A stretch of DNA of 64,000 bases from an uncultured Clostridia bacterium (GTDB lineage: Bacteria; Bacillota; Clostridia; TANB77; CAG-508). Location: positions 196-64,195 of the forward strand of contig CANRBL010000003.1 in NCBI GenBank assembly GCA_947628835.1. Direction: 5' to 3'. Positions 5,909 to 24,970 of the stretch are shown here, piece by piece; positions within the stretch are counted from its first letter, which is position 1; every line of letters starts with the position of its first letter. The notes beneath the pieces are model-generated. The model was not told where the DNA came from. It searched no databases and saw only the letters and a list, made by a program, of their open reading frames with translations. The position numbers were made by a program, and so were the translations under genes.

Positions 5909-6238
5909 ATGGATAATGAAAATAAAGAATTTACAAGATTGAAAGAATGGCAAAACTTAATGCAAGAATATGATGATTTCTTTTATGCAGATGGTGGAAT
6001 TTATACAGCTTCATTGATAGATAAAGAACTAAAAATATACAAGCTAGATTTTGATAGAATTAAAATTTTAATTCAAAAACTAAAAGACTTTGAAAAGAAA
6101 TATGGAGAATTATATAGAGATGAAAAAGAGAATCTCTTAAAAAGAAAAGATATATTGCTAGATTTAAAAACACAAACCAATGGAATAGATGGGATTTATA
6201 GAAAGATGAGTAACATGTATGAATTTATAGATGATTAA
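5909..6238 (+). CDS. Hypothetical protein (109 aa)
   Basis: ORF with GAGAGG-like SD 12 nt downstream of the previous stop. No recognisable motif. Confidence 0.45.
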   Translation: MDNENKEFTRLKEWQNLMQEYDDFFYADGGIYTASLIDKELKIYKLDFDRIKILIQKLKDFEKKYGELYRDEKENLLKRKDILLDLKTQTNGIDGIYRKMSNMYEFIDD

Positions 6239-6485: not shown

Positions 6486-7163
6486 TTATTTAGATGGCAT
6501 CATACTAATAACTCTACCAGCCAAATCATTGAAATTCATAGTTTGTAAAATAATCTTTCCAGGTCCAGTAAGTTTAGTTAAAAATAAACCTTCACCGCCA
6601 AAGAAAATATTTTTAAAACCTTTAATAGTTTCAATTTCATAAGTGACTTTTTTTTCAAAAGCTACAACATTACCAGTATCAACTAAAATAGTTTCTCCAT
6701 CTGCAAGTTCTCTAATAACTTCATCTCCATCAATTTCTAGAAATACATTTCCAGAGCCAGTCATTTCTTGTAAAATAAAGCCTTCACCACCAAATAATCC
6801 AGTAGAAAGTTTCTTAGTAAAAGCAACTTTTAGAGTAACACTATTTTCTGCGCATAAAAAAGCACCTTTTTGAGCAATAATACCAGAACTATTTGTTAAA
6901 TCGTAAGGAATTATATTACCAGGAACAGTTGAAGAAAAGGCAATATTTTGATTATCCTTTTCTGCTGTATATGTATTCATAAATAAGGAATCGCCAGAAA
7001 ACATTCTGCCAATACCTTTCATTAATCCGCCTCTTGTATTTGTTTCCATTTTTATATCTTTACTTCTCCAAGCCATAGCTCCAGATTGAGTATAAATACT
7101 GTCATTTTTATTTAAATTAAACTCAACTGCAGGAACTGTACTTCCAACTATTTTAAAATCCAT
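6486..7163 (-). CDS. TIGR00266 / AIM24 (DUF124) family protein
   Basis: 225-aa ORF. MDFKIVGSTVPAVEFNL...SGAMAW...GEGLFLTKLTGPGKIILQT is characteristic of the family. AGGAGG SD upstream on the minus strand. Confidence 0.75.
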   Translation of the reverse strand: MDFKIVGSTVPAVEFNLNKNDSIYTQSGAMAWRSKDIKMETNTRGGLMKGIGRMFSGDSLFMNTYTAEKDNQNIAFSSTVPGNIIPYDLTNSSGIIAQKGAFLCAENSVTLKVAFTKKLSTGLFGGEGFILQEMTGSGNVFLEIDGDEVIRELADGETILVDTGNVVAFEKKVTYEIETIKGFKNIFFGGEGLFLTKLTGPGKIILQTMNFNDLAGRVISMMPSK

Positions 7164-14846: not shown

Positions 14847-15078
14847 AAAAATAAAAATGCATTAGAAAACATATTAGTGCAAATAATAAATTAAAAATAA
14901 GGATATAAGCTTAAAATTAGAAGTAGCTTGTACAATGTATTAAAGAAATAATATATTGTAGAGGTTACAATCTAATAAATAAGCTTATAAAAAATTATAT
15001 AATTAATATGATAAAAACATATTTTTGAGAAATGTAATAAAATATAGGTGCAAGTTTAATTTAAAGGAGTGTATAAAA

Positions 15079-17205
15079 ATGTTTAAAACATATGAAACAG
15101 AATTATCAGGAAGAAAGTTAATTTTTGAAACTGGAAAAATGGCAGAACTAGCAAATGGAAGTGTATTAGTAAGATTTGGAGATACAGTAGTAATGGTAAA
15201 TGTTACTGCATCAAAAGAACCAAAAGAAGGAATAGACTTTTTCCCTTTATCAGTAGATTATGAAGAAAAATTATATTCAGTAGGAAAAATACCAGGTTCA
15301 TTTCAAAAAAGAGAAGGAAAACCAAGTGATAAAGCAATATTAACATCAAGAGCAATAGATAGACCATTAAGACCATTATTTCCAAAGGATTTTAGAAATG
15401 ATGTAGTAGTTGTTGCTACAGTATTATGTGTAGACCAAGACAATTCTCCAGAAGTAGCAGCAATGATAGGTGCTTCATGTGCATTATCAATATCAGACAT
15501 ACCATTTGGAGGACCAACAGCAGCAGTTAATGTAGGAATAGTAAATGGAGAAATAATAATAAATCCAACAGAAAGTCAAAGAGAACAAAGTGATTTAACA
15601 TTAACAGTAGCGGGTACGGAAGAAAAAATAGCAATGATAGAAGCGGGAGCAAATGAAATACCTGATGATTTAATGTTAGAAGCTATAAAAAAAGGACATG
15701 AAGAAATAAAAAAAATGTGTCAATTTATACAAAAAATAAAAGAAGAAATAGGAAAGCCAAAATTTGAATATAAATCATTTGCAGTAGATGAAGAAATATA
15801 TAATTTTGTTAAAGATAATTTTGAAAATGAAATGAAAATAGCAGTACAGGAAGTTGATAAAACAATAAGAGATAATAATGTTGAAGAATTAACAGACAAA
15901 ATATGTAATAATTATGTAGAAAAATATGGAGAAGAACTTGCAGAAACAAATAAACAAAATATAGGAGAAGCAATATACAAGTTAGAAAAAAAATGCGTAA
16001 GAGATATGATATTTTACGAGCATAAAAGAGTAGATGGTAGAAAATTAGATGAAATAAGACCACTTTCATGTGAGGTGGGATTATTACCACGAACACATGG
16101 TAGTGCATTATTTACAAGAGGGCAAACACAAGTATTATCAATTGCAACATTAGGAATGGTAAGTGAGGAACAAGTATTAGATGGAATAGACACAGAAGTA
16201 GCCAAAAGATATATGCATCAATATAATTTCCCTTCATATAGTGTAGGAGAAGCACGACCATCAAGAGGACCAGGAAGAAGAGAAATAGGACATGGAGCAT
16301 TGGCAGAAAAAGCATTAGCACCAGTAATACCATCAAAAGAAGAATTTCCATATGCAATAAGAGTAGTATCAGAAGTGTTATCTTCAAATGGTTCAACATC
16401 ACAAGCAAGCATATGTGGAAGTACATTGGCACTAATGGATGCAGGTGTACCAATAAAAGCACCAGTAGCAGGAATATCAACAGGACTTGTTACAAATCCA
16501 GAAAATCCAGACGATTATGTAATGTTAACAGATATACAAGGATTAGAAGATTTCTTTGGAGATATGGATTTTAAAGTTGGAGGAACAGAAAAAGGAATTA
16601 CAGCAATACAAGTAGATATCAAAGTTGATGGTTTATCATATAAAGTTATAGAAGAAGCATTTGCTAGAACAAGAGAGGCAAGACATTATATTTTAAATGA
16701 AATAATGTTAAAGCAAATTGATAAACCAAGAAATGAAATATCAAAATATGCTCCAAGAATTGTAAATACAAAAATAAAAGTAGAAAAAATAAAAGATGTA
16801 ATAGGAAAAGGCGGAGAAACAATAAATAAAATAATAGAACAAACAGGAGTAAAAATAGATATAGAAGAAGATGGACAAGTATTTATATATTCAGCAGATA
16901 ATCAAAAGGCACAAGAAGCTCTAGACATAATTGAAGATATAGTAAGAGATGTAGAAGTTGGTGGAATATATTTAGGTACAGTTGTTAGAATAATGCCATT
17001 TGGAGCTTTTGTAGATTTAGGTGTTGCTGGAAAAGAAGGTTTATTGCACATTTCCAGAATTTCAAAAGAAAGAATTAAACATGTAGAAGATGTATTAAGT
17101 GTAGGAGATAGAGTAACAGTAAAAGTGTACGAAATAGATGAACAAGGAAAAATTAATTTAACAATGAAAGATTTAAATGAAGAAAAAAAGGAAAGGTGTG
17201 AGTAG
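15079..17205 (+). CDS. pnp: Polyribonucleotide nucleotidyltransferase (PNPase)
   Basis: Two RNase PH domains plus KH (KIKDVIGKGGETINKI) and S1 (GGIYLGTVVRIMPFGAFVDL). ATG 15079 after AAAGGAG is preferred over the track start at 15025. Confidence 0.95.
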   Translation: MFKTYETELSGRKLIFETGKMAELANGSVLVRFGDTVVMVNVTASKEPKEGIDFFPLSVDYEEKLYSVGKIPGSFQKREGKPSDKAILTSRAIDRPLRPLFPKDFRNDVVVVATVLCVDQDNSPEVAAMIGASCALSISDIPFGGPTAAVNVGIVNGEIIINPTESQREQSDLTLTVAGTEEKIAMIEAGANEIPDDLMLEAIKKGHEEIKKMCQFIQKIKEEIGKPKFEYKSFAVDEEIYNFVKDNFENEMKIAVQEVDKTIRDNNVEELTDKICNNYVEKYGEELAETNKQNIGEAIYKLEKKCVRDMIFYEHKRVDGRKLDEIRPLSCEVGLLPRTHGSALFTRGQTQVLSIATLGMVSEEQVLDGIDTEVAKRYMHQYNFPSYSVGEARPSRGPGRREIGHGALAEKALAPVIPSKEEFPYAIRVVSEVLSSNGSTSQASICGSTLALMDAGVPIKAPVAGISTGLVTNPENPDDYVMLTDIQGLEDFFGDMDFKVGGTEKGITAIQVDIKVDGLSYKVIEEAFARTREARHYILNEIMLKQIDKPRNEISKYAPRIVNTKIKVEKIKDVIGKGGETINKIIEQTGVKIDIEEDGQVFIYSADNQKAQEALDIIEDIVRDVEVGGIYLGTVVRIMPFGAFVDLGVAGKEGLLHISRISKERIKHVEDVLSVGDRVTVKVYEIDEQGKINLTMKDLNEEKKERCE

Positions 17206-17206
17206 A

Positions 17207-19621
17207 ATGTTAGATAAAAAATATAATGCATTAGAAAAAGAAGAAAAATGGTTAAATTATTGGAAAGACAATAAAATTTATGAATTTAAAAGAAATGGAA
17301 AAGAAATATATTCAATAGATACTCCACCACCAACAGTAAATGGTAAAATTCATATTGGTCATATTTTTTCATATACGCAAACAGAAATGTTAGCAAGATA
17401 TAAGAGATTAAGAGGATATAATATATTTTATCCATTTGGATTTGATGATAATGGATTACCTAGTGAAAGACTTGTAGAAAAAGAACAAGGAAAAAGAGCT
17501 CATGAAATAGGAAGAGAAAAATTCTCAGAACTATGTTATGAAACTACTAATAAATACGAAGCAGATTTTCAAGAATTATTTAGTAAAATGGGTGTAAGTA
17601 CAGATTGGAGTATTCATTATAAAACGGTTGCACCATCAACAATAAAAATTAGTCAAAAGTCATTTTTAGATTTAATTGAAAAAGGACATTGTTATCATAA
17701 AGAAAGTCCAGCTTTATGGTGTAATGAGTGTTTAACTTCAATTGCACAAGCTGAGTTAGAAACAAAAACAATTAAAACAACATTTAATTATATAAATTTC
17801 AAAACTATAGAAGACAATGAAGAATTTACAATTGCAACAACAAGACCAGAACTTTTACCTGCTATTGTTTGCGTATTTGTTAATCCAGAAGATGAAAAAC
17901 ATAAGCATTTAATTGGTAAAACTGCACATATTCCTGTAATTGATGTAGAAGTTCCAATAATGGCTGATGAAAAAGTTGCTATTGACAAGGGTACAGGTGT
18001 AGTTATGTGTTGTACTTTTGGAGATCAAACTGATATTGAATGGTGGAAAAAATATAAATTACCATTGAAATATATATTCACAGATAATGGAAAAATAATA
18101 GATGAAGTACCAAAATATGGTGGTTTAAAAATAAAAGAAGCTAGAAAGAAAATAATAGAAGATTTACAAGCTGGTGGATATGTAGTTAAAGTTGAAGAAT
18201 TAGAACATGAAGTTCAAACACACGAAAGATGTGGAAAAGAAGTTGAATATGCAGTTATGAAACAGTGGTTTATAGACATTATGAATCATAAAGAAGATTT
18301 CTTGAAAATTGGTAATGAAATAAAATGGCATCCTGCACATATGCACTCAAGATATGATGAGTGGGTAAATAATATTGCGTGGGATTGGTGCATTTCAAGA
18401 CAAAGATATTTTGGAGTTCCTTTTCCAGTTTGGTATTGTAAAGATTGTGGAGAACCTGTATTTGCTAGAAAAGAAGATTTGCCAATAAATCCATTAGTAG
18501 ATAAACCAAAGACTGAGAAATGTTCAAAATGTGGTTGCAGAGAATTTGAAGCTGATACAGATATAATGGATACTTGGGCCACATCATCAGTTACACCACT
18601 TATAAATATGAGATATGGTGAAAAAGAAAACTTTGAAGATATTTTAAAACCTATGAGTTTAAGAACAAATGCAAGTGAAATAATTAGAACTTGGGATTTT
18701 TATACAATAGTTAAGAGTTTCTATCATTTTGGACAAAGACCTTGGGATAATGTTATGATTTCAGGTTTTGTTATGGCAAATAAAGGAGAAAAAATTAGCA
18801 AAAGTAAAGGAAATAGCAAACATGAACCAATGGATTTAATAAAACAATATTCAGCAGATGTTCTTAGATATTGGGCAGGAACTGGAAGATTAGGAACAGA
18901 TATTGTATTTAGTGAGGAAACATTGCTTCGTGGAAAGAAATTAATAAATAAAATATGGAATGTATCTAAATTTATTGAAATGCATTTATCAGATTACGAA
19001 GATAAAGAGTTTGAAGATTTTGAATTTATTGATAAATGGATTTTAGGACGTTTTCAAGAAATGGAAAAGCAGTTTATTAATTATTTAGATGAGTATGAAG
19101 TGGGATTAGCATTAAATATTTTAGAAAAATTCTTTTGGGAATTTTGTGATAATTACATAGAAATAGTAAAACATAGATTATATAGACCAGAAGAATTTGG
19201 AGATATACCAAGATATAGTGGCCAAAAGACAGTTTATACGTTATTGTATAAATTATTGCAAGATTTTAGTATATATTTTCCATTTATAACAGAAGAAATA
19301 TTCCAAGAATTATATCATAATAATTCTTCTATTCATCTTACAAAAATTGAACAATTAACTTATGATTTTAATAAAGAAATTGAATTAGGTAATCAAATAA
19401 TTGAAATTATAAGTCAATCAAGAGGAGCAAAAACGAATAATAATGTTTCATTAAAGACACCTATAAAAAATTTATCAATAGGAGTTAATAAAGAACTAAA
19501 AGAAGCTATTGACAAATCAATAAAGGATTTTAAAGCAACTTTGTTTATACAAAATTTAGAATGCAAAATTATTGATAAGGATTATGAAGTATATAATATT
19601 GAGTTAGATTTAGAAGAATAA
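17207..19621 (+). CDS. valS: Valine--tRNA ligase (archaeal/actinobacterial-like class I type)
   Basis: HIGH motif (PPPTVNGKIHIGHIFSY), FGFDDNGLPSE, KMSKS-like KISKSKGN, CxxC zinc knuckles. ATG 17207 lies 1 nt after the pnp stop. The Val rather than Ile/Leu assignment comes from N-terminal motif resemblance. Confidence 0.75.
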   Translation: MLDKKYNALEKEEKWLNYWKDNKIYEFKRNGKEIYSIDTPPPTVNGKIHIGHIFSYTQTEMLARYKRLRGYNIFYPFGFDDNGLPSERLVEKEQGKRAHEIGREKFSELCYETTNKYEADFQELFSKMGVSTDWSIHYKTVAPSTIKISQKSFLDLIEKGHCYHKESPALWCNECLTSIAQAELETKTIKTTFNYINFKTIEDNEEFTIATTRPELLPAIVCVFVNPEDEKHKHLIGKTAHIPVIDVEVPIMADEKVAIDKGTGVVMCCTFGDQTDIEWWKKYKLPLKYIFTDNGKIIDEVPKYGGLKIKEARKKIIEDLQAGGYVVKVEELEHEVQTHERCGKEVEYAVMKQWFIDIMNHKEDFLKIGNEIKWHPAHMHSRYDEWVNNIAWDWCISRQRYFGVPFPVWYCKDCGEPVFARKEDLPINPLVDKPKTEKCSKCGCREFEADTDIMDTWATSSVTPLINMRYGEKENFEDILKPMSLRTNASEIIRTWDFYTIVKSFYHFGQRPWDNVMISGFVMANKGEKISKSKGNSKHEPMDLIKQYSADVLRYWAGTGRLGTDIVFSEETLLRGKKLINKIWNVSKFIEMHLSDYEDKEFEDFEFIDKWILGRFQEMEKQFINYLDEYEVGLALNILEKFFWEFCDNYIEIVKHRLYRPEEFGDIPRYSGQKTVYTLLYKLLQDFSIYFPFITEEIFQELYHNNSSIHLTKIEQLTYDFNKEIELGNQIIEIISQSRGAKTNNNVSLKTPIKNLSIGVNKELKEAIDKSIKDFKATLFIQNLECKIIDKDYEVYNIELDLEE

Positions 19622-19822
19622 AAGATAAAGTTATTAAATATTTAGAATGAATAAAAAATGAGACATACATTTTAAAGTTAATCCTTTCAAAATGTAAAAA
19701 ATAAAAAATACCTAAAGAAAAAAGTAAAGAGGAAAAAGCGAAGCTAGAAAAATATCAGTAAATGTTAAAAAATATCGAAAAAACTTTAGGTTATAAAATA
19801 TATAAGTGAATTATATTATTGT

Positions 19823-19858
19823 AAATAAAGCCAAAGTTTAACTTTGGCTTTATTTATA
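19823..19858 (+). terminator. Rho-independent terminator
   Basis: AAATAAAGCCAAAGT-tta-ACTTTGGCTTTATTT. Confidence 0.6.
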
Positions 19859-19889
19859 TCATAATAGGGTAAGAAAGGATGTTTAAGTA

Positions 19890-22507
19890 ATGGAATTAAA
19901 ATTATCAAATAAAAAAGAAAAAAAATATATAAATAAAAATGATTTTAATAAAATGAAGATGTTAAGTAAGCAAATGAAAGATTTACTAAAAAGAGGAGAA
20001 AATAAACAGGCAATACGAATATGTGAAGAATTTGAAAAAGAAAATCCTAAAATAAATATATATGAAAATGAATATATAGTAAGTCAATTAATGTCAGCAT
20101 ATAATAGGCAGGCTAAAAAAGAAAAGTTAAATAAAAATATTTTATGTTTAAAAGCAATAGAAGTAGGAAATAGGTTTAAAGGAATAGCTGAGACAGTAGC
20201 AAGTCAAAAAATGATGGCATTAAACGAATTAGAAAGATACGAAGAAATAGAGCAAGAAGCAGAAAAATGGAAAGATGAGAAAGGAAAAATAAAAGATGAG
20301 TTTATAGCAAGTCAGTTATTAATAGCATTAAATAAACAAGGAAAGTATGAAGAAGTAAAAAGAAAAGTAGAAAATTGGAGAGAAAATGGAAAAATAATAG
20401 ATGAATTTATAGAAAGTCATTTATTAGTAGCTTTAAATGGACAAGGAAAGTATGAAAAGGTAATAAAAGAGGTAGAAAGTTGGAAAAATGAGAATAGAAA
20501 AATAACAGATGAATTTATGGAAAGTCAATTGTTAGTGGCATTAAATAAACAAGGTAAATATGAAGAAGTAGAAAAAGAAGTAGAAAATTGGAGAGATGAG
20601 AAAGGAAAAATAATAGATGAATTTATAATGAGCCAGTTGTTAGTAGCATTAAATGGACAAGGAAAATATGAAGAAGTAGAAAAAAAAGTAGAAATTTTGA
20701 GAGATGAGAATGGAAAAATAAAAGATGAAAGTATAACAAGTCAATTGTTAGTAGCATTAAATGGACAAGGGAAGTATGAAAAAGTAGAAAAAGAAGTTAA
20801 AAATTTGATAGATGAGAATGGAAAAATAATAGATGAAGTTATAGCAAGTCAGTGGTTAGTAGCATTAAATGGACAAGAAAAATATGAAGAAGTAGAAAAA
20901 GAAGTAGAAAATTGGAGAAAAGCAGATGGAAAAATAACAAATGAGTTTATAGCAAATCAGTTGTTAGTAGCGTTAAATGGACAAGGAAAATATGAAAAAG
21001 TAGAAAAAGAAGTAGAAAATTGGAGAGAGGAGAATGGAAAAATAAAAAGTTCATTTATAGCAAGTCAATTGTTAGTGGCATTAAATAAACAAGGAAAGTA
21101 TGGACAAGCAATAAAAGAAACGGAAAAATGGAGAGATGAAAATGGAAAAATAACAAAAGAAAGTATAGAAAGTCAATTGATAGTAACATTAAATAAAAAA
21201 GGAAAATATGAAAATGTAAGAGAAATAATATATAAAATAAGAGCAAAAGTATTAGAAAATAAACTAACACAAGAAGATATAAAAAAATTAGAAAGCAAAA
21301 AAGAACAAATAGGAGAATATGAATATGGAATAATATTAATAGAAATAGAGATGAGAAATAGAAGAAAGGAAAATGCAGAAAAAATAGTAAAGGAAATGTT
21401 AAAAAGGGAAAGTAGAAATGAGAAAGAAATAAAAGAATTGAAAAAAGTAAGAGAAGAAATAAAAAAGAAGAAGAGTATATTTAATATAGGAATGTATGAC
21501 GATATATTAGGAATAGATGTAGAAAAAGGAAGAGAATACATAGAAAAAATGAAAAAAGAAGAAATAGAACAAAAGCAAGGGGAAATAAGGAGAGAAAAAG
21601 AGAATGATAAAAGAAAGAAAACATAAGCAAAGAAAGAAGAGAGGGTATTAAAGAAAAAAATAATAGACAAGATATTATAGTAGATGATAGCAAAGAAGTT
21701 AAAAAAGAAAACAAAGAGATAAAACAAAAAGAAAAAATAAAAAGTCAAGAAAAAACAAAGAAAAAACGAAAAGAATTAAAAGAAAATAAAAAGAAACATA
21801 TAGGAAAATTAGAAGAAATAAAGGAAAAAATAGAAGTTAAGGTAGCAATACATAATATAAAAAGATACATAGAAAGAAGAAAAGAGGAGCAAATAAAGCA
21901 AGAAAAAAAAGTAAATGAAATTATAGAAGAAAATAAAGAAAAAGAAGAAAAAAATAAAATAAAAGACCAAAAACAATCAAATAAAGAAATACAAGAGCAA
22001 GCAAAAGAACTGTTAAAGAAAGTAATATTAGACAAATATAAAGAAATATCTAAATATATAGAAATATCTAACAGTAAAGAAAAAAGTAAAAATAAAGAAA
22101 TAATAAATAGAATTGACCAAATGGAAGAAATATTAGAAAGAAAAGAAGTCGGAGGAAAACAAATAATACAAATAGTATCATATTTAATAGCAGAAGGAAA
22201 AAAGGAAGAAATAGAAAAAATATATCCAGAAGAAACAGAGATGGTAGACCAATTAACAAGAATCACAAATTGTAAAATGGTAATAAATAAACAAGAGTTA
22301 AGAGAAAAAATATCTGCAATAAAAGAAAAATATAAAGATGATGAGCAAATGCAAGAAACGATAGAAAAATTAATAGAAAATGCTAAAAGAATAAGAAAAG
22401 AGCAAATTGAGGAAAGTGTTAAATTTAACAATAAAAGAAAAGTTAAAGAAATAAGAAAAAATAAGATACAAGAAAAAACAATAACAAAGATTAATAGAGA
22501 AAGATAG
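19890..22507 (+). pseudogene. 36-aa helical-repeat protein, paralogue 1, reading frame broken
   Basis: ORF 19890..21626 holds the N-terminus and repeats. The C-terminal region homologous to paralogue 2 continues in another frame, open 21611..22507. The two frames overlap only at 21611-21623. Confidence 0.6.
20190..21255 (+). repeat. Tandem 108-bp (36-codon) coding repeats, about 10 units
   Basis: Units such as EFIESQLLVALNGQGKYEEVEKEVENWRDEKGKIID are repeated head to tail. Boundaries are approximate. Confidence 0.85.
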
Positions 22508-22574
22508 AGGAACAACAATGTAGAATTACAAAAAAGAAGGAGAAAATATGTCTTAGAAAGGTAGGATAGTAAAA

Positions 22575-24749
22575 ATGGAATTAAAATTATCAAATAAACA
22601 AGAAAAAAAATATATAAATAAAAATTACTTTAATAAAATAAAGATGTTAAGTAAGCAAATGAAAGAGTTACTAAAAAGAGGAAAAAATAGACAGGCAATA
22701 CGAATATGTGAAGAATTTGAAAAAGAAAATCCTAAAATAAATATATATGAAAATGAATATATAGTAAGTCAATTAATGTCAGCATATAATAGGCAGGCTA
22801 AAAAAGAAAAGTTAAATAAAAATATTTTATGTTTAAAAGCAATAGAAGTAGGAAATAGGTTTAAAGGAATAGCTGAGACAGTAGCAAGTCAAAAAATGAT
22901 GGCATTAAACGAATTAGAAAGATACGAAGAAATAGAGCAAGAAGCAGAAAAATGGAAAGATGAGAAAGGAAAAATAATAGGAAAATTTATAGCAAGTCAG
23001 TTTTTAGTAGCATTAAATAAACAAGGAAAATATGGAGAGATGATAGAAGAAACAGAAGAATTGATGGGTAGAGAAGGAAAAATAATAGATGAATTTATAG
23101 AAAGTCAAAGATTAGTAGCATTAAATGGATTAAAAAGATATGAAGAAGTGATAAAAGAAACAGAAGAATGGAAAAATAGAGAAGGAAAAATAACAGTAGA
23201 AAGTATAGCAAGCCAGAGGCTAGTAGCATTAAATAAACAAGAAAAATATGAAGAAGTGGAAAAAGAAGTAGAAAATTGGAGAGATGAGAAAGGAAAAATA
23301 ACGAGTGCAACTATAGTAAGTCAGTGGTTGGTAGCATTAAATGGATTAAAAAGATATGAAGAAATGATAGAAGAAACAGAAGAATGGCGAGATAAAGAAG
23401 GAAAAATAATAAATGATTTTATAGAAAGTCAGTTATTAGTAGCATTAAATGGATTAAAAAGATATGAAGAAGTAAAAGAAGAAACAGAAGAATGGCAAGA
23501 TAGAGAAGGAAAAATAACAAATGAATTTATAGGAATTCAAAGATTAGTAGCATTAAATGGATTAAAAAGATATGAAGAAGTAATAGAAGAAACAGAAAAA
23601 TGGAAAAATAGTGAAGAAAAGATAACGATAGAAAGTATAGCAAGCCAGAGGCTAGTAGCATTAAATAAACAAGAAAAATATGAAGAAGTAGAAAAAGAAA
23701 TAGAAAATTGGAGAGATGAGAAAGGAAAAATAACGAGTGCAACTATAGAAAGTCAGTGGTTGGTAGCATTAAATGGATTAAAAAGGTATAAAGAAGTAAT
23801 AGAAGAAACTAAAGAATGGAGAAATAGAGAGGGAAAAATAACAGATAAATTTATAGAAAGCCAGTTGAAAGTAGCATTAAATGGACAAGAAGAGTGTAAA
23901 AAATCAGAAAAAGAAGGATTTGGAGTAGAGGCAGAAAAGGCAAAACAAAAAAGAAAGATATTAGAGAGAAAATTAAAAAGTCAAGAAAAACCAGAGAAAA
24001 AACAAAAAGATTTAGAAGAATTAAAAAAGAAAAATATAAGAAAATTAGAAGAAAAAATAGAAATTAAAGTAGCAATAAATAATATAAAAAGATACATAGA
24101 AAGAAGAAAAGAGGAGCAAATAAAGCAAGAAAAAAATGAAAATGTTATAGAAGAAAATAAAGAAAAAGAAGAAAAAAATAAAACAAAAGAGAAAAGAGTA
24201 GAAAATAAAGTAAAATACCAAAAACAATCAAATAAAGAAATACAAGAGCAAGCAAAAGAAATGTTAAAAAAAGTAATAGTAGACAAACAAATATTTAACA
24301 GTAAAGAAATAAGTAAAAATAAAGAAATATTAAATAGAATTGACCAAATGGAAGAAATATTAGAAAGAAAAGAAGTCGGAGGAAAACAAATAATACAAAT
24401 AGTATCATATTTAATAGCAGAAGGAAAAAAGGAAGAAATAGAAAAAATATATCCAGAAGAAACAGAGATGGTAGACCAATTAACAAGAATCACAAATTGT
24501 AAAATGGTAATAAATAAACAAGAGTTAAGAGAAAAAATATCTGCAATAAAAGAAAAATATAAAGATGATGAGCAAATGCAAGAAACGATAGAAAAATTAA
24601 TAGAAAATGCTAAAAAAATAAGAAAAGAGCAAATTGAGAAAAAAACGATATACAAAAATGAAAAGGAGATAAAAGGAATAGTTTCAAAAGGATTAAAACA
24701 AGAACCAGCAAAAATAAAATCAGTAATAAGAAAAGAAGCAGGCAGATAA
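22575..24749 (+). CDS. 36-aa helical-repeat (TPR/PPR-like) protein, paralogue 2, intact (724 aa)
   Basis: Single ORF. The N-terminal ~135 aa are nearly identical to paralogue 1. Then come about 10 repeats, a Lys/Glu-rich region and a conserved C-terminal domain MEEILERKEVGGKQIIQIVSYLIAEGKK... Confidence 0.7.
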   Translation: MELKLSNKQEKKYINKNYFNKIKMLSKQMKELLKRGKNRQAIRICEEFEKENPKINIYENEYIVSQLMSAYNRQAKKEKLNKNILCLKAIEVGNRFKGIAETVASQKMMALNELERYEEIEQEAEKWKDEKGKIIGKFIASQFLVALNKQGKYGEMIEETEELMGREGKIIDEFIESQRLVALNGLKRYEEVIKETEEWKNREGKITVESIASQRLVALNKQEKYEEVEKEVENWRDEKGKITSATIVSQWLVALNGLKRYEEMIEETEEWRDKEGKIINDFIESQLLVALNGLKRYEEVKEETEEWQDREGKITNEFIGIQRLVALNGLKRYEEVIEETEKWKNSEEKITIESIASQRLVALNKQEKYEEVEKEIENWRDEKGKITSATIESQWLVALNGLKRYKEVIEETKEWRNREGKITDKFIESQLKVALNGQEECKKSEKEGFGVEAEKAKQKRKILERKLKSQEKPEKKQKDLEELKKKNIRKLEEKIEIKVAINNIKRYIERRKEEQIKQEKNENVIEENKEKEEKNKTKEKRVENKVKYQKQSNKEIQEQAKEMLKKVIVDKQIFNSKEISKNKEILNRIDQMEEILERKEVGGKQIIQIVSYLIAEGKKEEIEKIYPEETEMVDQLTRITNCKMVINKQELREKISAIKEKYKDDEQMQETIEKLIENAKKIRKEQIEKKTIYKNEKEIKGIVSKGLKQEPAKIKSVIRKEAGR
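22875..23910 (+). repeat. Tandem 108-bp coding repeats with a 432-bp higher-order repeat
   Basis: 23199.. and 23631.. are near-identical over more than 160 nt (offset 432 = 4 units). Boundaries are approximate. Confidence 0.85.
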
Positions 24750-24769
24750 AGAACAAATATCTTAAATAG

Positions 24770-24823
24770 CGGAATTAATATTTAAAAAGCAAACAATTGC
24801 TATAAATATTAATTCCGTTTTTT
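24770..24823 (+). terminator. Hairpin plus T-run after repeat-protein gene
   Basis: CGGAATTAATATTT ... AAATATTAATTCCG followed by TTTTTT. Confidence 0.55.
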
Positions 24824-24848
24824 GTCGAACTTTTCTTAGTATTCGACA
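24823..24848. promoter_or_regulatory. Inverted pair of Spo0A-box heptamers upstream of spoIIAA
   Basis: TGTCGAA (24823-24829) and TTCGACA (24842-24848), about 125 nt upstream of the spoIIAA start. Confidence 0.45.
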
Positions 24849-24970
24849 AAAGTTCTATAGTTTTGCTATTGGAAAAAATTACCAATTAATATATAATTAT
24901 TAACAATAAAGGTTTGAAAATTAAGTAAAAAAAATGGACAAGCCAAAATAAAAATAAAGGAGGACAAGTA

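Follow-up and report, generated by a model that had tools for sequence, protein, structure and literature searches.

Tandem genes of divergent 36-residue TPR-class repeats, predicted to form an alpha-solenoid, at the valS-spoIIA junction of an uncultured Clostridia bacterium

Results

Organization of the tandem repeat genes

Here, we describe a tandem pair of repeat genes located between valS and the spoIIA genes of an uncultured Clostridia bacterium from gut (GenBank assembly GCA_947628835.1, contig CANRBL010000003.1). The window, i.e., the whole stretch of DNA that was analysed, is 64,000 nucleotides long (contig positions 196 to 64,195) and has a GC content of 25.3%. The two open reading frames (ORFs) start at 19890 and 22575, spaced by 2685 bp and on the same (+) strand, exactly where a first, sequence-only reading of this DNA had placed them. 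Both frames are free of stops, compared with 113 and 57 stops in the other two frames of copy 1 and 133 and 65 in those of copy 2; both genes are coding, now or recently. The pair consists of the following parts, in which helix predictions are from AlphaFold2 with its per-residue confidence (predicted local distance difference test, pLDDT):

19890..21626, + strand: copy 1 ORF, 578 aa, comprising degenerate hairpins in the N-terminal part, nine 36-aa repeats and a 123-aa copy-1-specific tail before the stop
20286..21254, + strand: copy 1 repeat array, nine units (unit 1 is 35 aa long) of the type '...SQLLVALNGQGKYEEVEKEVENW...', 75-87% identical in DNA
21611..22507, + strand: 3' part of copy 1 in the -1 frame, Lys/Glu-rich linker and C-terminal domain, aligning to copy 2 aa 453-724 with a score of 916
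22575..24749, + strand: copy 2 ORF, intact, 724 aa
22620..22970, + strand: N-terminal degenerate hairpins of copy 2, aa 16-132, predicted helices 16-34, 38-51, 61-77, 82-95, 101-113 and 117-125, pLDDT > 90
22971..23942, + strand: repeat array of copy 2, its nine units falling into two subtypes (NKQEKYEEVEKEVENW and NGLKRYEEVIEETEEW), with an internal duplication that spans four units (432 bp)
23934..24287, + strand: Lys/Glu-rich basic segment of copy 2, aa 454-571, predicted single helix of about 118 residues
24309..24686, + strand: small helical C-terminal domain of copy 2, aa 579-704, MEEILERKEVGGKQ...IENAK, predicted with low confidence (pLDDT 35-60)

Tandem Repeats Finder reports a 108-bp array in each copy, at 20232-21218 in copy 1 (9.2 copies, 82% matches) and at 22902-23885 in copy 2 (9.1 copies, 77% matches), the latter with additional periods of 216 bp and 432 bp (four units). 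Nine clear 36-aa units are found per copy (aa 133-455 in copy 1 and aa 133-456 in copy 2), preceded in each by about three degenerate hairpins; the earlier count of roughly ten tandem units is thereby refined to nine clear and about three degenerate ones. The whole protein has a pI of 8.8 versus about 5.2 in neighbouring proteins. Its N-terminus carries a net charge of +8 and aa 453-590 one of +16 (pI 9.8), and that of the acidic repeat domains is -17 for copy 2 and -6 for copy 1. Neither protein contains a signal peptide or transmembrane segment (maximum Kyte-Doolittle 19-residue mean 0.66-0.88), as had been proposed from the letters alone. The long helix appears as H2-119 in the AlphaFold2 model of the C-terminal half, with pLDDT about 60-79; that model as a whole is weak (pLDDT 56.7). 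The C-terminal domain, which is conserved between the copies and in P0030/L083 (83% identity), has no Pfam match and no PDB sequence match.

Copy 1 is not the full duplicate of copy 2 that it had been taken for. Its ORF stops at 21626, about 430 bp (roughly 21203-21640) are present in copy 1 and absent from copy 2, and to read the linker and C-terminal domain one has to change to the -1 frame, which between 21611 and 22507 has one stop in 293 codons versus 35-40 stops in the other frames. The C-terminal MEEILERK...IENAK domain is indeed shared, with a synonymous divergence (dS) between the copies of 0.016, but in copy 1 it lies only in this -1 frame. A 128-aa ORF with an ATG start (22121-22507) is found inside the copy 1 3' part, with no Shine-Dalgarno sequence before 22121. 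L083, a contig from another sample, is split in the same way (579 aa plus 128 aa), so the break is not a private error of the window assembly. Copy 1 has lost the in-frame link to its C-terminal module by a frameshift, i.e., one of the two genes is broken.

Predicted fold of the repeat domain

Briefly, aa 1-470 of copy 2 were submitted to AlphaFold2 with the paralogue as the sole extra information, effectively a two-sequence alignment. The repeat region was modelled as an all-helical hairpin solenoid with 12 hairpins (pLDDT 86.5, predicted template modelling score 0.74). Each unit in this model consists of helix A (columns 5-17, 13 residues), helix B (columns 21-31, about 10 residues) and a nine-residue loop closed by a beta-bridge that links column 32 with column 2 of the next unit.

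When the model was compared with the PDB by Foldseek, the first 14 places were taken by pentatricopeptide repeat (PPR) proteins, with E values of 3e-7 to 8e-4 and target-normalised TM scores up to 0.67. The best match is cPPR-Telo1 (5orm, E 3e-7, 20% identity), and dPPR, PPR10 and mitoribosomal PPRs are also among them; APC/C-type and other tetratricopeptide repeat (TPR) proteins follow, and all significant matches are alpha-solenoids. In the viral library, the top four matches are Pithovirus proteins, two of them named PPR, and Sel1 proteins come far down the list (E > 0.1). As predicted, the tandem helix-turn-helix hairpins stack in an open superhelix, which would place the repeat domain in the TPR-like alpha-solenoid superfamily in the sense of Pfam clan CL0020, and the superhelical geometry of the model is of PPR type when set against solved structures. 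The call of a PPR/TPR-like solenoid made from sequence thus holds, with PPRs first and TPRs next, and neither AlphaFold2 nor Foldseek pointed to a non-solenoid fold.

Similarity and variability of the units

The protein identity of the units is 56-78% within copy 1 (mean 70%) and 50-94% within copy 2 (mean 63%), with a mean of 57% between copies; to describe them as near-identical was overstated. The four-unit duplication in copy 2 is well visible at the DNA level, where units 3/7 are 95%, units 2/6 92% and units 4/8 90% identical, and the type-A units of copy 2 resemble copy 1 units more than their own neighbours.

The variability is significantly uneven over the columns of the unit, with a dispersion index of 2.6 that was reached in none of 20,000 uniform simulations. 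Strongly variable are 15 of the 36 columns (3, 4, 6, 8, 11, 17, 19, 25, 26, 28, 30 and 32-35) and near-invariant are ten (1, 2, 7, 10, 12-16 and 21). The sequence-only reading, which had seen the differences cluster at a few positions, was therefore right about the unevenness but not about the small number of sites. In pairwise comparison, columns 9, 10, 12 and 14 show 174 synonymous (Sd) versus 44 non-synonymous (Nd) differences, and in columns 4, 6, 8, 17, 25, 28 and 30 the non-synonymous differences exceed the synonymous ones. The core positions of the repeat are under purifying selection, and the surplus of synonymous differences in the fixed columns indicates genuine coding genes, at least until recently. 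A solenoid that is constrained by its fold usually shows this contrast of core and surface, and the pattern is not that of a two- or three-residue code.

Relation of the 36-residue unit to TPR and PPR families

At the level of profiles, the unit is elusive. None of the Pfam PPR models (PF01535, PF13041, PF12854, PF13812, PF17177) matches even at E up to 10, and neither does TPR_1, 2, 8, 11, 12 or 16, in the same library in which true TPR proteins score E 1e-55 to 1e-62. The sole generic TPR/PPR-class Pfam model that matches is TPR-S (PF20308, 'Tetratricopeptide Repeats-Sensor'). The score is 37.3 bits for the complete copy 1 protein and 42.9 bits for its repeat domain (cut-off 27.6), and the repeat domain of copy 2 stays just under the cut-off with 26.1 bits; please note that these scores are inflated by the repetition and that the model is unspecific. 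TPR-S also matches the ordinary TPR proteins P0020 and P0022, and a literature search found no paper defining 'TPR-S'. There was no match to Sel1 (PF08238) in the Pfam scans, and an assignment to the 36-44-residue Sel1-like repeats does not hold. The Pfam match 'Phage_lysozyme' (up to 41.5 bits) covers only profile positions 82-115, once per unit, and was rejected as a repeat-amplified match to a single helix-turn. Two further candidates were dropped: no signature of a diversity-generating retroelement was seen, and an RRNPP/Rap-type regulator was discarded, as there is no helix-turn-helix (HTH) domain and no downstream peptide gene.

For profile-profile comparison, an 18-unit profile was used as the hhalign query against a bacterial 34-aa TPR unit taken from P0022, the consensus CTPR3 and a consensus PPR (cPPR) that had been checked against PDB 5orq. 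The bacterial TPR unit was matched with a probability of 88.7% (E 2.6e-6), CTPR3 with 31% and cPPR with 22% (E 1e-3), so that by sequence the 36-aa unit appears closer to the bacterial 34-aa TPR than to the consensus PPR. A canonical TPR is characterised by a 34-residue period, the signature W4-L7-G8-Y11-A20-F24-A27-P32 and detection by TPR hidden Markov models (HMMs), and the unit is not of this kind, given its 36-aa period, the missing Pro at the position-32 equivalent and the lack of an HMM match.

All three hhalign alignments share one register, in which the column number equals the TPR or PPR position plus 4. In PPR proteins, the base is specified jointly by positions 5 (N/S/T) and 35 (D/N/S), which differ from repeat to repeat. 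The equivalent of position 5 is column 9, with Ser in 16 of the 18 units (Asn and Ile once each); that of position 35 is column 4 (D8, N3, S3, and K, G, V and I), and that of position 2 is column 6 (Phe/Ser/Thr/Val). Since column 9 is nearly invariant Ser, a two-residue code of PPR type is not seen here, and variability within helix A peaks at columns 8 and 11, which do not coincide with PPR code positions. The earlier idea of a modular code-like binder is left unsupported by the missing PPR HMM match, the hhalign preference for TPR over PPR, the constancy of column 9 and the 15 variable columns. We consider it weakened only, because none of the three outcomes that the sequence-only reading had named as speaking against it was found: the predicted fold is a solenoid, the variability is not evenly spread, and no confident match to a characterised protein-scaffold TPR family was obtained.

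Divergence and exchange between the copies

The two copies do not differ at a single nucleotide within codons 41-132 (100% identity, dS 0), which confirms at the DNA level the identity noticed for residues 41-133, and the gene ends overall have dS of 0 to 0.06. The repeats between the copies have a dS of 0.42 and a ratio of non-synonymous to synonymous rates (omega) of 0.63. The first approximately 40 codons (19890-20015 and 22575-22700) are the fastest-changing part outside the repeats, with 6 non-synonymous and 1 synonymous differences between copy 1 and copy 2.

In comparison of the window with L002, a contig from a related organism, the first 42 codons show 15 non-synonymous and 1 synonymous differences, and codons 60-131 have an omega of 0.37. 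In comparison with L083 there are 44 differences in five tracts; through one tract, the first units of the two copies become identical, and in another the copy 1 C-terminal domain is diverged in L083 and converted in the window. These patterns fit gene conversion between the copies, with path-switching by the assembler as a serious alternative at the 1.8-3.6x coverage of the comparison contigs, and the surface of the solenoid would possibly diversify by such inter-copy exchange in addition to repeat-block duplication.

Distribution of the family

Word-indexed searches over 5.8 billion proteins retrieved no real homologue. With the full copy 2 as query there were only weak TPR matches (the candidate list being saturated by Lys/Glu-rich sequences), the two-copy alignment gave nothing, and the C-terminal domain retrieved only the window's own ORF and P0030. 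An exhaustive phmmer search of 1.84 billion representatives yielded only two short fragments of the same family and weak TPR matches. Pattern-seeded scans of GTDB genomes, JGI metagenomes and IMG/VR viral contigs detected no relatives, exact look-ups did not find the long proteins in the protein collection, and NCBIfam, PADLOC and PDB sequence searches gave nothing meaningful for the repeat proteins. What the repeats do match, weakly (E 5e-11 to 1e-6, 25-42% identity over 12-44% of the query), are TPR arrays that form fusions with nSTAND NTPases, SIR2 or a restriction-endonuclease-like domain.

Relatives are limited to four short contigs in ENA that come from sibling samples; the contigs used for strain comparison have a coverage of 1.8-3.6x. 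L001 is identical to the window; L083 (5.2 kb, the same species) is 99.07% identical to window positions 17949-23114; L002 (ENA ERZ27249265) is a relative with 83% DNA identity; the fourth is L084 (ENA ERZ27249370). The junction from copy 1 to copy 2 is covered by two independent contigs, L083 and L084. As far as these searches reach, the family appears only in one species and one close relative.

The orthologue in L002 (229-579) has a GTG start and a 39-nt deletion between ATATAT microhomologies, which removes CEEFEKENPKINIYE and leaves an in-frame TAA TAA; this may be a pseudogene or a low-coverage (1.8x) error. In L084 (1-1492), an N-terminus and units 1-2 of copy 2 type are joined to units of copy 1 type, and codon 87, which is Leu in the window, is a TAA stop; L084 is either a natural recombinant of the paralogues or an assembly chimera (2.7x coverage).

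Transcription signals and neighbouring genes

The pair is flanked on the + strand by pnp (15025-17205) and valS (17177-19621) upstream, and by spoIIAA (24971), spoIIAB (25361), sigF (25857) and spoIID (26651) downstream. Around the pair we recognized:

19708..19788, + strand: relic 3' end (coiled-coil tail) of a second bacterial-type valS, translation IPKEKSKEEKAKLEKYQ*MLKNIEKTL with an internal stop
19820..19858, + strand: terminator hairpin upstream of copy 1, 18-bp stem by RNAfold (-21.1 kcal/mol) followed by a T-rich run, conserved in L002
19838..19865, + strand: sigma-70-like promoter candidate before copy 1, TTAACT-16-CATAAT, 9/12 matches in a consensus scan
24768..24823, + strand: intrinsic terminator 3' of copy 2, long AT-rich stem by RNAfold (-24.2 kcal/mol) followed by TTTTTT

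A ribosome-binding site precedes each gene, that of copy 2 being GAAAGGTAGGA upstream of 22575. No terminator was found between copy 1 and copy 2; the flanking terminators, the ribosome-binding sites before both genes and the lack of termination in between argue that the pair is a two-gene transcription unit of its own. The -10 element of the promoter candidate is TATAAT at the equivalent place in L002. Please note that the candidate is a weak pattern match and that the number of such sites in the region equals the chance expectation. The GC content of the pair is that of the host, and its codon use is more A-biased than in the neighbouring genes.

A sporulation role suggested by the adjacent spoIIA was rejected, as a strong terminator and a conserved Spo0A-box promoter region part the units; sporulation-sigma promoter motifs upstream of copy 1 were unconvincing on inspection. 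Upstream of spoIIAA there are inverted Spo0A boxes, TGTCGAA (24823) and TTCGACA (24842), and a promoter-like TTGGAA-17-TATAAT at 24869-24897, and about 55 bp within 24823-24897 are conserved at 76-81% in L003, L004, L006 and L015. An Rfam scan of the whole 64 kb found no family at gathering score and no T-box leader ahead of valS, and no tRNA/tmRNA gene was found in the window.

Variable junction between valS and spoIIAA

The junction was compared with relatives from a ValS scan that gave 80 loci from gut metagenome-assembled genomes of uncultured Clostridia and Bacilli, many labelled 'Lapin', plus chicken, human and ruminant sources; 11 of these loci also hold spoIIAA. The distance between valS and spoIIAA is 159-446 bp in eight of the 11. 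The other three have larger gaps: 3.2 kb in L003 (9285-12459), with an HTH_36 protein and half of a second valS; 5.3 kb in L015 (13358-18621), with a Schlafen/AlbA_2-HATPase_c_4-HTH gene, half a second valS and a further three small ORFs, of which two look like paralogues; and 7.4 kb in L016 (4431-11808), with metG, GNAT, two radical-SAM/SPASM-like genes and an amidohydrolase-like gene. In the window this interval spans 19622-24970, and the repeat genes occur in none of the 11 loci. With valS and spoIIAA adjacent in eight relatives and other cargo in three, the repeat pair is an insertion at a variable junction, at which no integrase or repeat boundaries were seen.

The valS relic aligns to an intact tail in L002 (1-123, in frame) and to ValS C-termini in L003 and L015, and it marks the upstream edge of the variable junction. 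The terminator at 19820-19858 belongs to this relic of a second valS. The earlier placement of the pair between a valS terminator and spoIIA is therefore correct in location, but the terminator is not that of the intact valS.

The intact valS of the window encodes a complete PRK13208-type ValS of 814 aa according to NCBIfam, and an initial suspicion that it was truncated has been withdrawn. Its listed ATG at 17177 overlaps the end of pnp by 29 nt; the ValS of relatives begins at the equivalent of MLDKKYN, and the true start in the window is probably about ten codons downstream. The second valS (PRK05729 type, with a C-terminal coiled coil) is decaying in the group, with about 27 codons left in the window and C-terminal halves of 532 aa in L003 (10701-12299) and 579 aa in L015 (15200-16939); judged from these remnants, it looks like the coiled-coil-less PRK13208-type ValS is displacing the other type. 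The tblastn match of the 814-aa ValS query spans about 3.3 kb, some 900 bp beyond the gene, in L003, L010-L013, L015, L036 and L038 (in L003, for example, the valS ORF starts at 6861 and the match at 5941, extending to 9281), and the longer match suggests an upstream duplicated valS fragment or an insertion.

Discussion

We read the pair as encoding a lineage-specific cytoplasmic solenoid of TPR class with PPR-like geometry. It would be a binding scaffold whose ligand is most likely protein, and it diversifies through duplicated repeats and possibly through exchange between the paralogues; we give this reading about an even chance of being right. The pair is a species-restricted two-gene unit, inserted at the variable valS-spoIIA junction. 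Each gene would produce a cytoplasmic alpha-solenoid of about 12 hairpins of the divergent 36-residue TPR-class repeat, with a PPR-like predicted superhelix. The solenoid may serve as a ligand-binding scaffold, the ligand being most probably a protein or peptide, and in the intact copy 2 the basic helix of about 118 residues and the C-terminal domain could act as a spacer and an oligomerisation or tethering module. The binding surface would change through repeat-block duplication with the core positions kept under purifying selection.

Several observations weigh against this reading. At the positions of the TPR concave face, 5, 9 and 12, the units have conserved Ser, Val and Asn instead of variable residues, and the top structural matches are RNA- or ssDNA-binding (single-stranded DNA) PPRs, not protein-binding TPRs. 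No partner genes, enzymatic domains or effectors are present. The genes may be dispensable in view of the frameshift in copy 1, the in-frame stops in L002 and the stop in L084. The conversion tracts may be an assembler's path-switching between paralogues, given the coverage of 1.8-3.6x.

The structural matches lead to a quite different proposal, namely a PPR-like binder that reads single-stranded RNA (ssRNA) or ssDNA at one base per 36-aa unit through the equivalents of PPR positions 2, 5 and 35, with the basic N-terminus and linker adding backbone affinity. The 14 best PDB matches by Foldseek are PPRs, several of them RNA- or ssDNA-bound (5orq, 5i9g, 6een, 4m59), the best viral-library matches are Pithovirus proteins, of which two are named PPR, and hhalign together with Smith-Waterman alignment puts Ser9 at position 5, Asp/Asn/Ser4 at position 35 and Phe/Ser/Thr/Val6 at position 2; the charges (protein pI 8.8, N-terminus +8, linker +16) would suit such a ligand as well. 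However, the repeat domain itself is acidic (-6 and -17), no Pfam PPR model matches at E up to 10 though even the ordinary TPR protein P0022 cross-matches PPR, and hhalign gives the consensus PPR 22% versus 88.7% for the bacterial TPR. Ser in 16 of 18 position-5 equivalents leaves hardly any code, at position 35 several equivalents (Val, Ile, Lys, Gly) depart from the canonical residues, and the AlphaFold2 model comes from an effectively two-sequence alignment. PPR-like RNA binders are, to our knowledge, rare in bacteria. We therefore regard a sequence-reading binder as distinctly unlikely, and its stronger form, an independently evolved bacterial PPR-like family that would use Ser9 plus Asp/Asn/Ser4 for one base of ssRNA or ssDNA per unit, with paralogues reading different, probably purine-rich targets and a -1 frameshift in copy 1 that might add an isoform, as quite improbable.

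The repeats could instead belong to a conflict system (phage or mobile-element defence or counter-defence), in which a variable solenoid senses or masks a foreign protein and is carried as cargo in a variable spot. In sequence, the repeats come nearest to the TPR arrays of nSTAND NTPase, SIR2 and restriction-endonuclease-like fusions, the only TPR/PPR-class Pfam match is a 'sensor' model, the same junction carries the Schlafen/AlbA_2-HATPase_c_4-HTH gene in L015 and the HTH_36 gene in L003, and the family is species-restricted, tandemly duplicated and mosaic, with a fast-changing start (15 non-synonymous to 1 synonymous differences in the first 42 codons against L002). Its mode of evolution resembles that of TPR, ANK and WD repeats with high internal conservation in fungal NLRs (PMC4986451), but the repeat identity of 63-70% is under the 85% of that class. 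Neither the proteins nor the adjoining genes (pnp and valS; spoIIAA, spoIIAB, sigF and spoIID) contain an NTPase, a nuclease, TIR, SIR2 or another effector, there is no PADLOC match, no relative was found in viral contigs, and no integrase, repeat boundary or deviating GC content was seen; TPR-S matches generic TPRs too, and with 25-42% identity over 12-44% of the query the similarity to TPRs is weak. On balance, we find this unlikely. We also find it unlikely, slightly more so, that the pair is a recently expanded orphan in decay or without function, amplified by slippage and unequal crossing-over, dispensable and drifting to pseudogenes. The frameshift of copy 1 in two assemblies, the 39-nt deletion with in-frame TAA TAA in L002, the TAA at codon 87 in L084, an omega of 0.63 in the repeats and of about 1 or higher in the first 40 codons, and the restriction to one species plus one close relative would all be expected from decay. 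Copy 2, however, is intact over 724 codons despite frequent stops in its other frames, the core columns are strongly purified among units at dS of about 0.4, codons 60-131 have an omega of 0.37 against L002, the fold model is confident, and the disruptions in L002 and L084 rest on 1.8-2.7x coverage. Independently of all these readings, the break in copy 1 could be a programmed -1 ribosomal frameshift at A-AAG (21614-21617), giving a short isoform of 578 aa and a long one of about 870 aa with linker and C-terminal domain. The frames overlap by only 16 nt (21611-21626, stop codon counted), the overlap holds an A AAG at which, by inspection of the sequence, tRNA-Lys could re-pair in the -1 frame, this frame is open for 293 codons, and the arrangement is identical in L083. 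Yet inspection of 21580-21680 reveals no canonical X XXY YYZ heptamer, no well-placed Shine-Dalgarno-like stimulator and no stable downstream structure, a recent 1-nt indel explains the same facts if the downstream part was kept copy-2-like by exchange, and L083, at 99% identity and of the same species, is no independent evolutionary sample. Programmed frameshifting thus seems highly improbable to us.

If the pair encodes a TPR-class scaffold, it adds one more lineage-specific repeat protein, and its value would lie in being a clean example of tandem-repeat gene diversification in a small AT-rich gut genome, in which blocks of repeats are duplicated, the ends stay conserved around a divergent core, and the insertion spot beside spoIIA is variable. 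If the PPR-like geometry did mean nucleic-acid binding, a compact bacterial version would be of interest to RNA biologists and protein designers; as far as we know, PPR-type modular RNA readers are essentially an invention of eukaryotic organelles. The 36-aa unit with its beta-bridged loop, which escapes all standard TPR and PPR profiles, could seed a new profile for similar hidden solenoids.

Comparison with known systems

Judged by profile and database searches, the pair would represent a well-known fold class whose unit escapes the standard TPR and PPR profiles, in a family that appears essentially private to one species. The best sequence matches are the bacterial 34-residue 'ALNxLGRYEEA' TPR arrays (P0001, P0019 and P0022; the sensor regions of STAND, SIR2 and restriction-endonuclease proteins; E 5e-11 to 1e-6, hhalign 88.7%), which share with our units the hairpin, the core motif ALN..G.YEE[AV], the register and the tandem arrangement of mutually similar units. 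In contrast to these arrays, which TPR HMMs detect at E 1e-55 to 1e-62, the unit described here has a 36-aa period instead of 34, a nine-residue beta-bridged loop in the model, no Pro32 signature and no detection by TPR_1/2/8, and a long basic helix and C-terminal domain stand in place of the NTPase or effector of the bacterial fusions. The same applies to TPR-S/NLR-type sensor arrays, whose link to a STAND NTPase, vWA-MoxR or effector is absent from the proteins and their neighbours here.

The best structural matches are PPR proteins (cPPR-Telo1 5orm/5orq, dPPR 5i9g and maize PPR10 4m59), with a period of 35 versus 36 aa here. The loop and helix A are alike, EKGIVPD...YNTLISGL in PPR versus EKGKITD...SQ.L.AL in our units, and polar residues are found at the equivalents of positions 5 and 35. 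Unlike PPRs, the repeats here have no PPR HMM match, a near-invariant Ser at the position 5 equivalent and variable helix-A columns that lie off the code, and they come from a bacterium without eukaryotic sequence signature.

A third comparison concerns the highly internally conserved TPR/ANK/WD repeats of fungal (and bacterial) NLR-type receptors (Dyrka et al. 2014, PMC4986451), a class defined in fungi by at least 85% identity between units over at least 100 aa (PMC4986451). Our repeats differ from it in their internal identity of 63-70%, with only the block-duplication pairs reaching 90-95% in DNA, and in having no NOD or STAND domain. What they have in common with it are tandem units whose DNA is similar, duplicated blocks, an apparent exchange within paralogues and between them (as far as contigs of 1.8-3.6x coverage tell), conserved flanks around a divergent repeat core, and variability in a subset of columns. 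By analogy, these fungal NLR repeats may be regarded as the closest conceptual parallel to the tandem genes described here.

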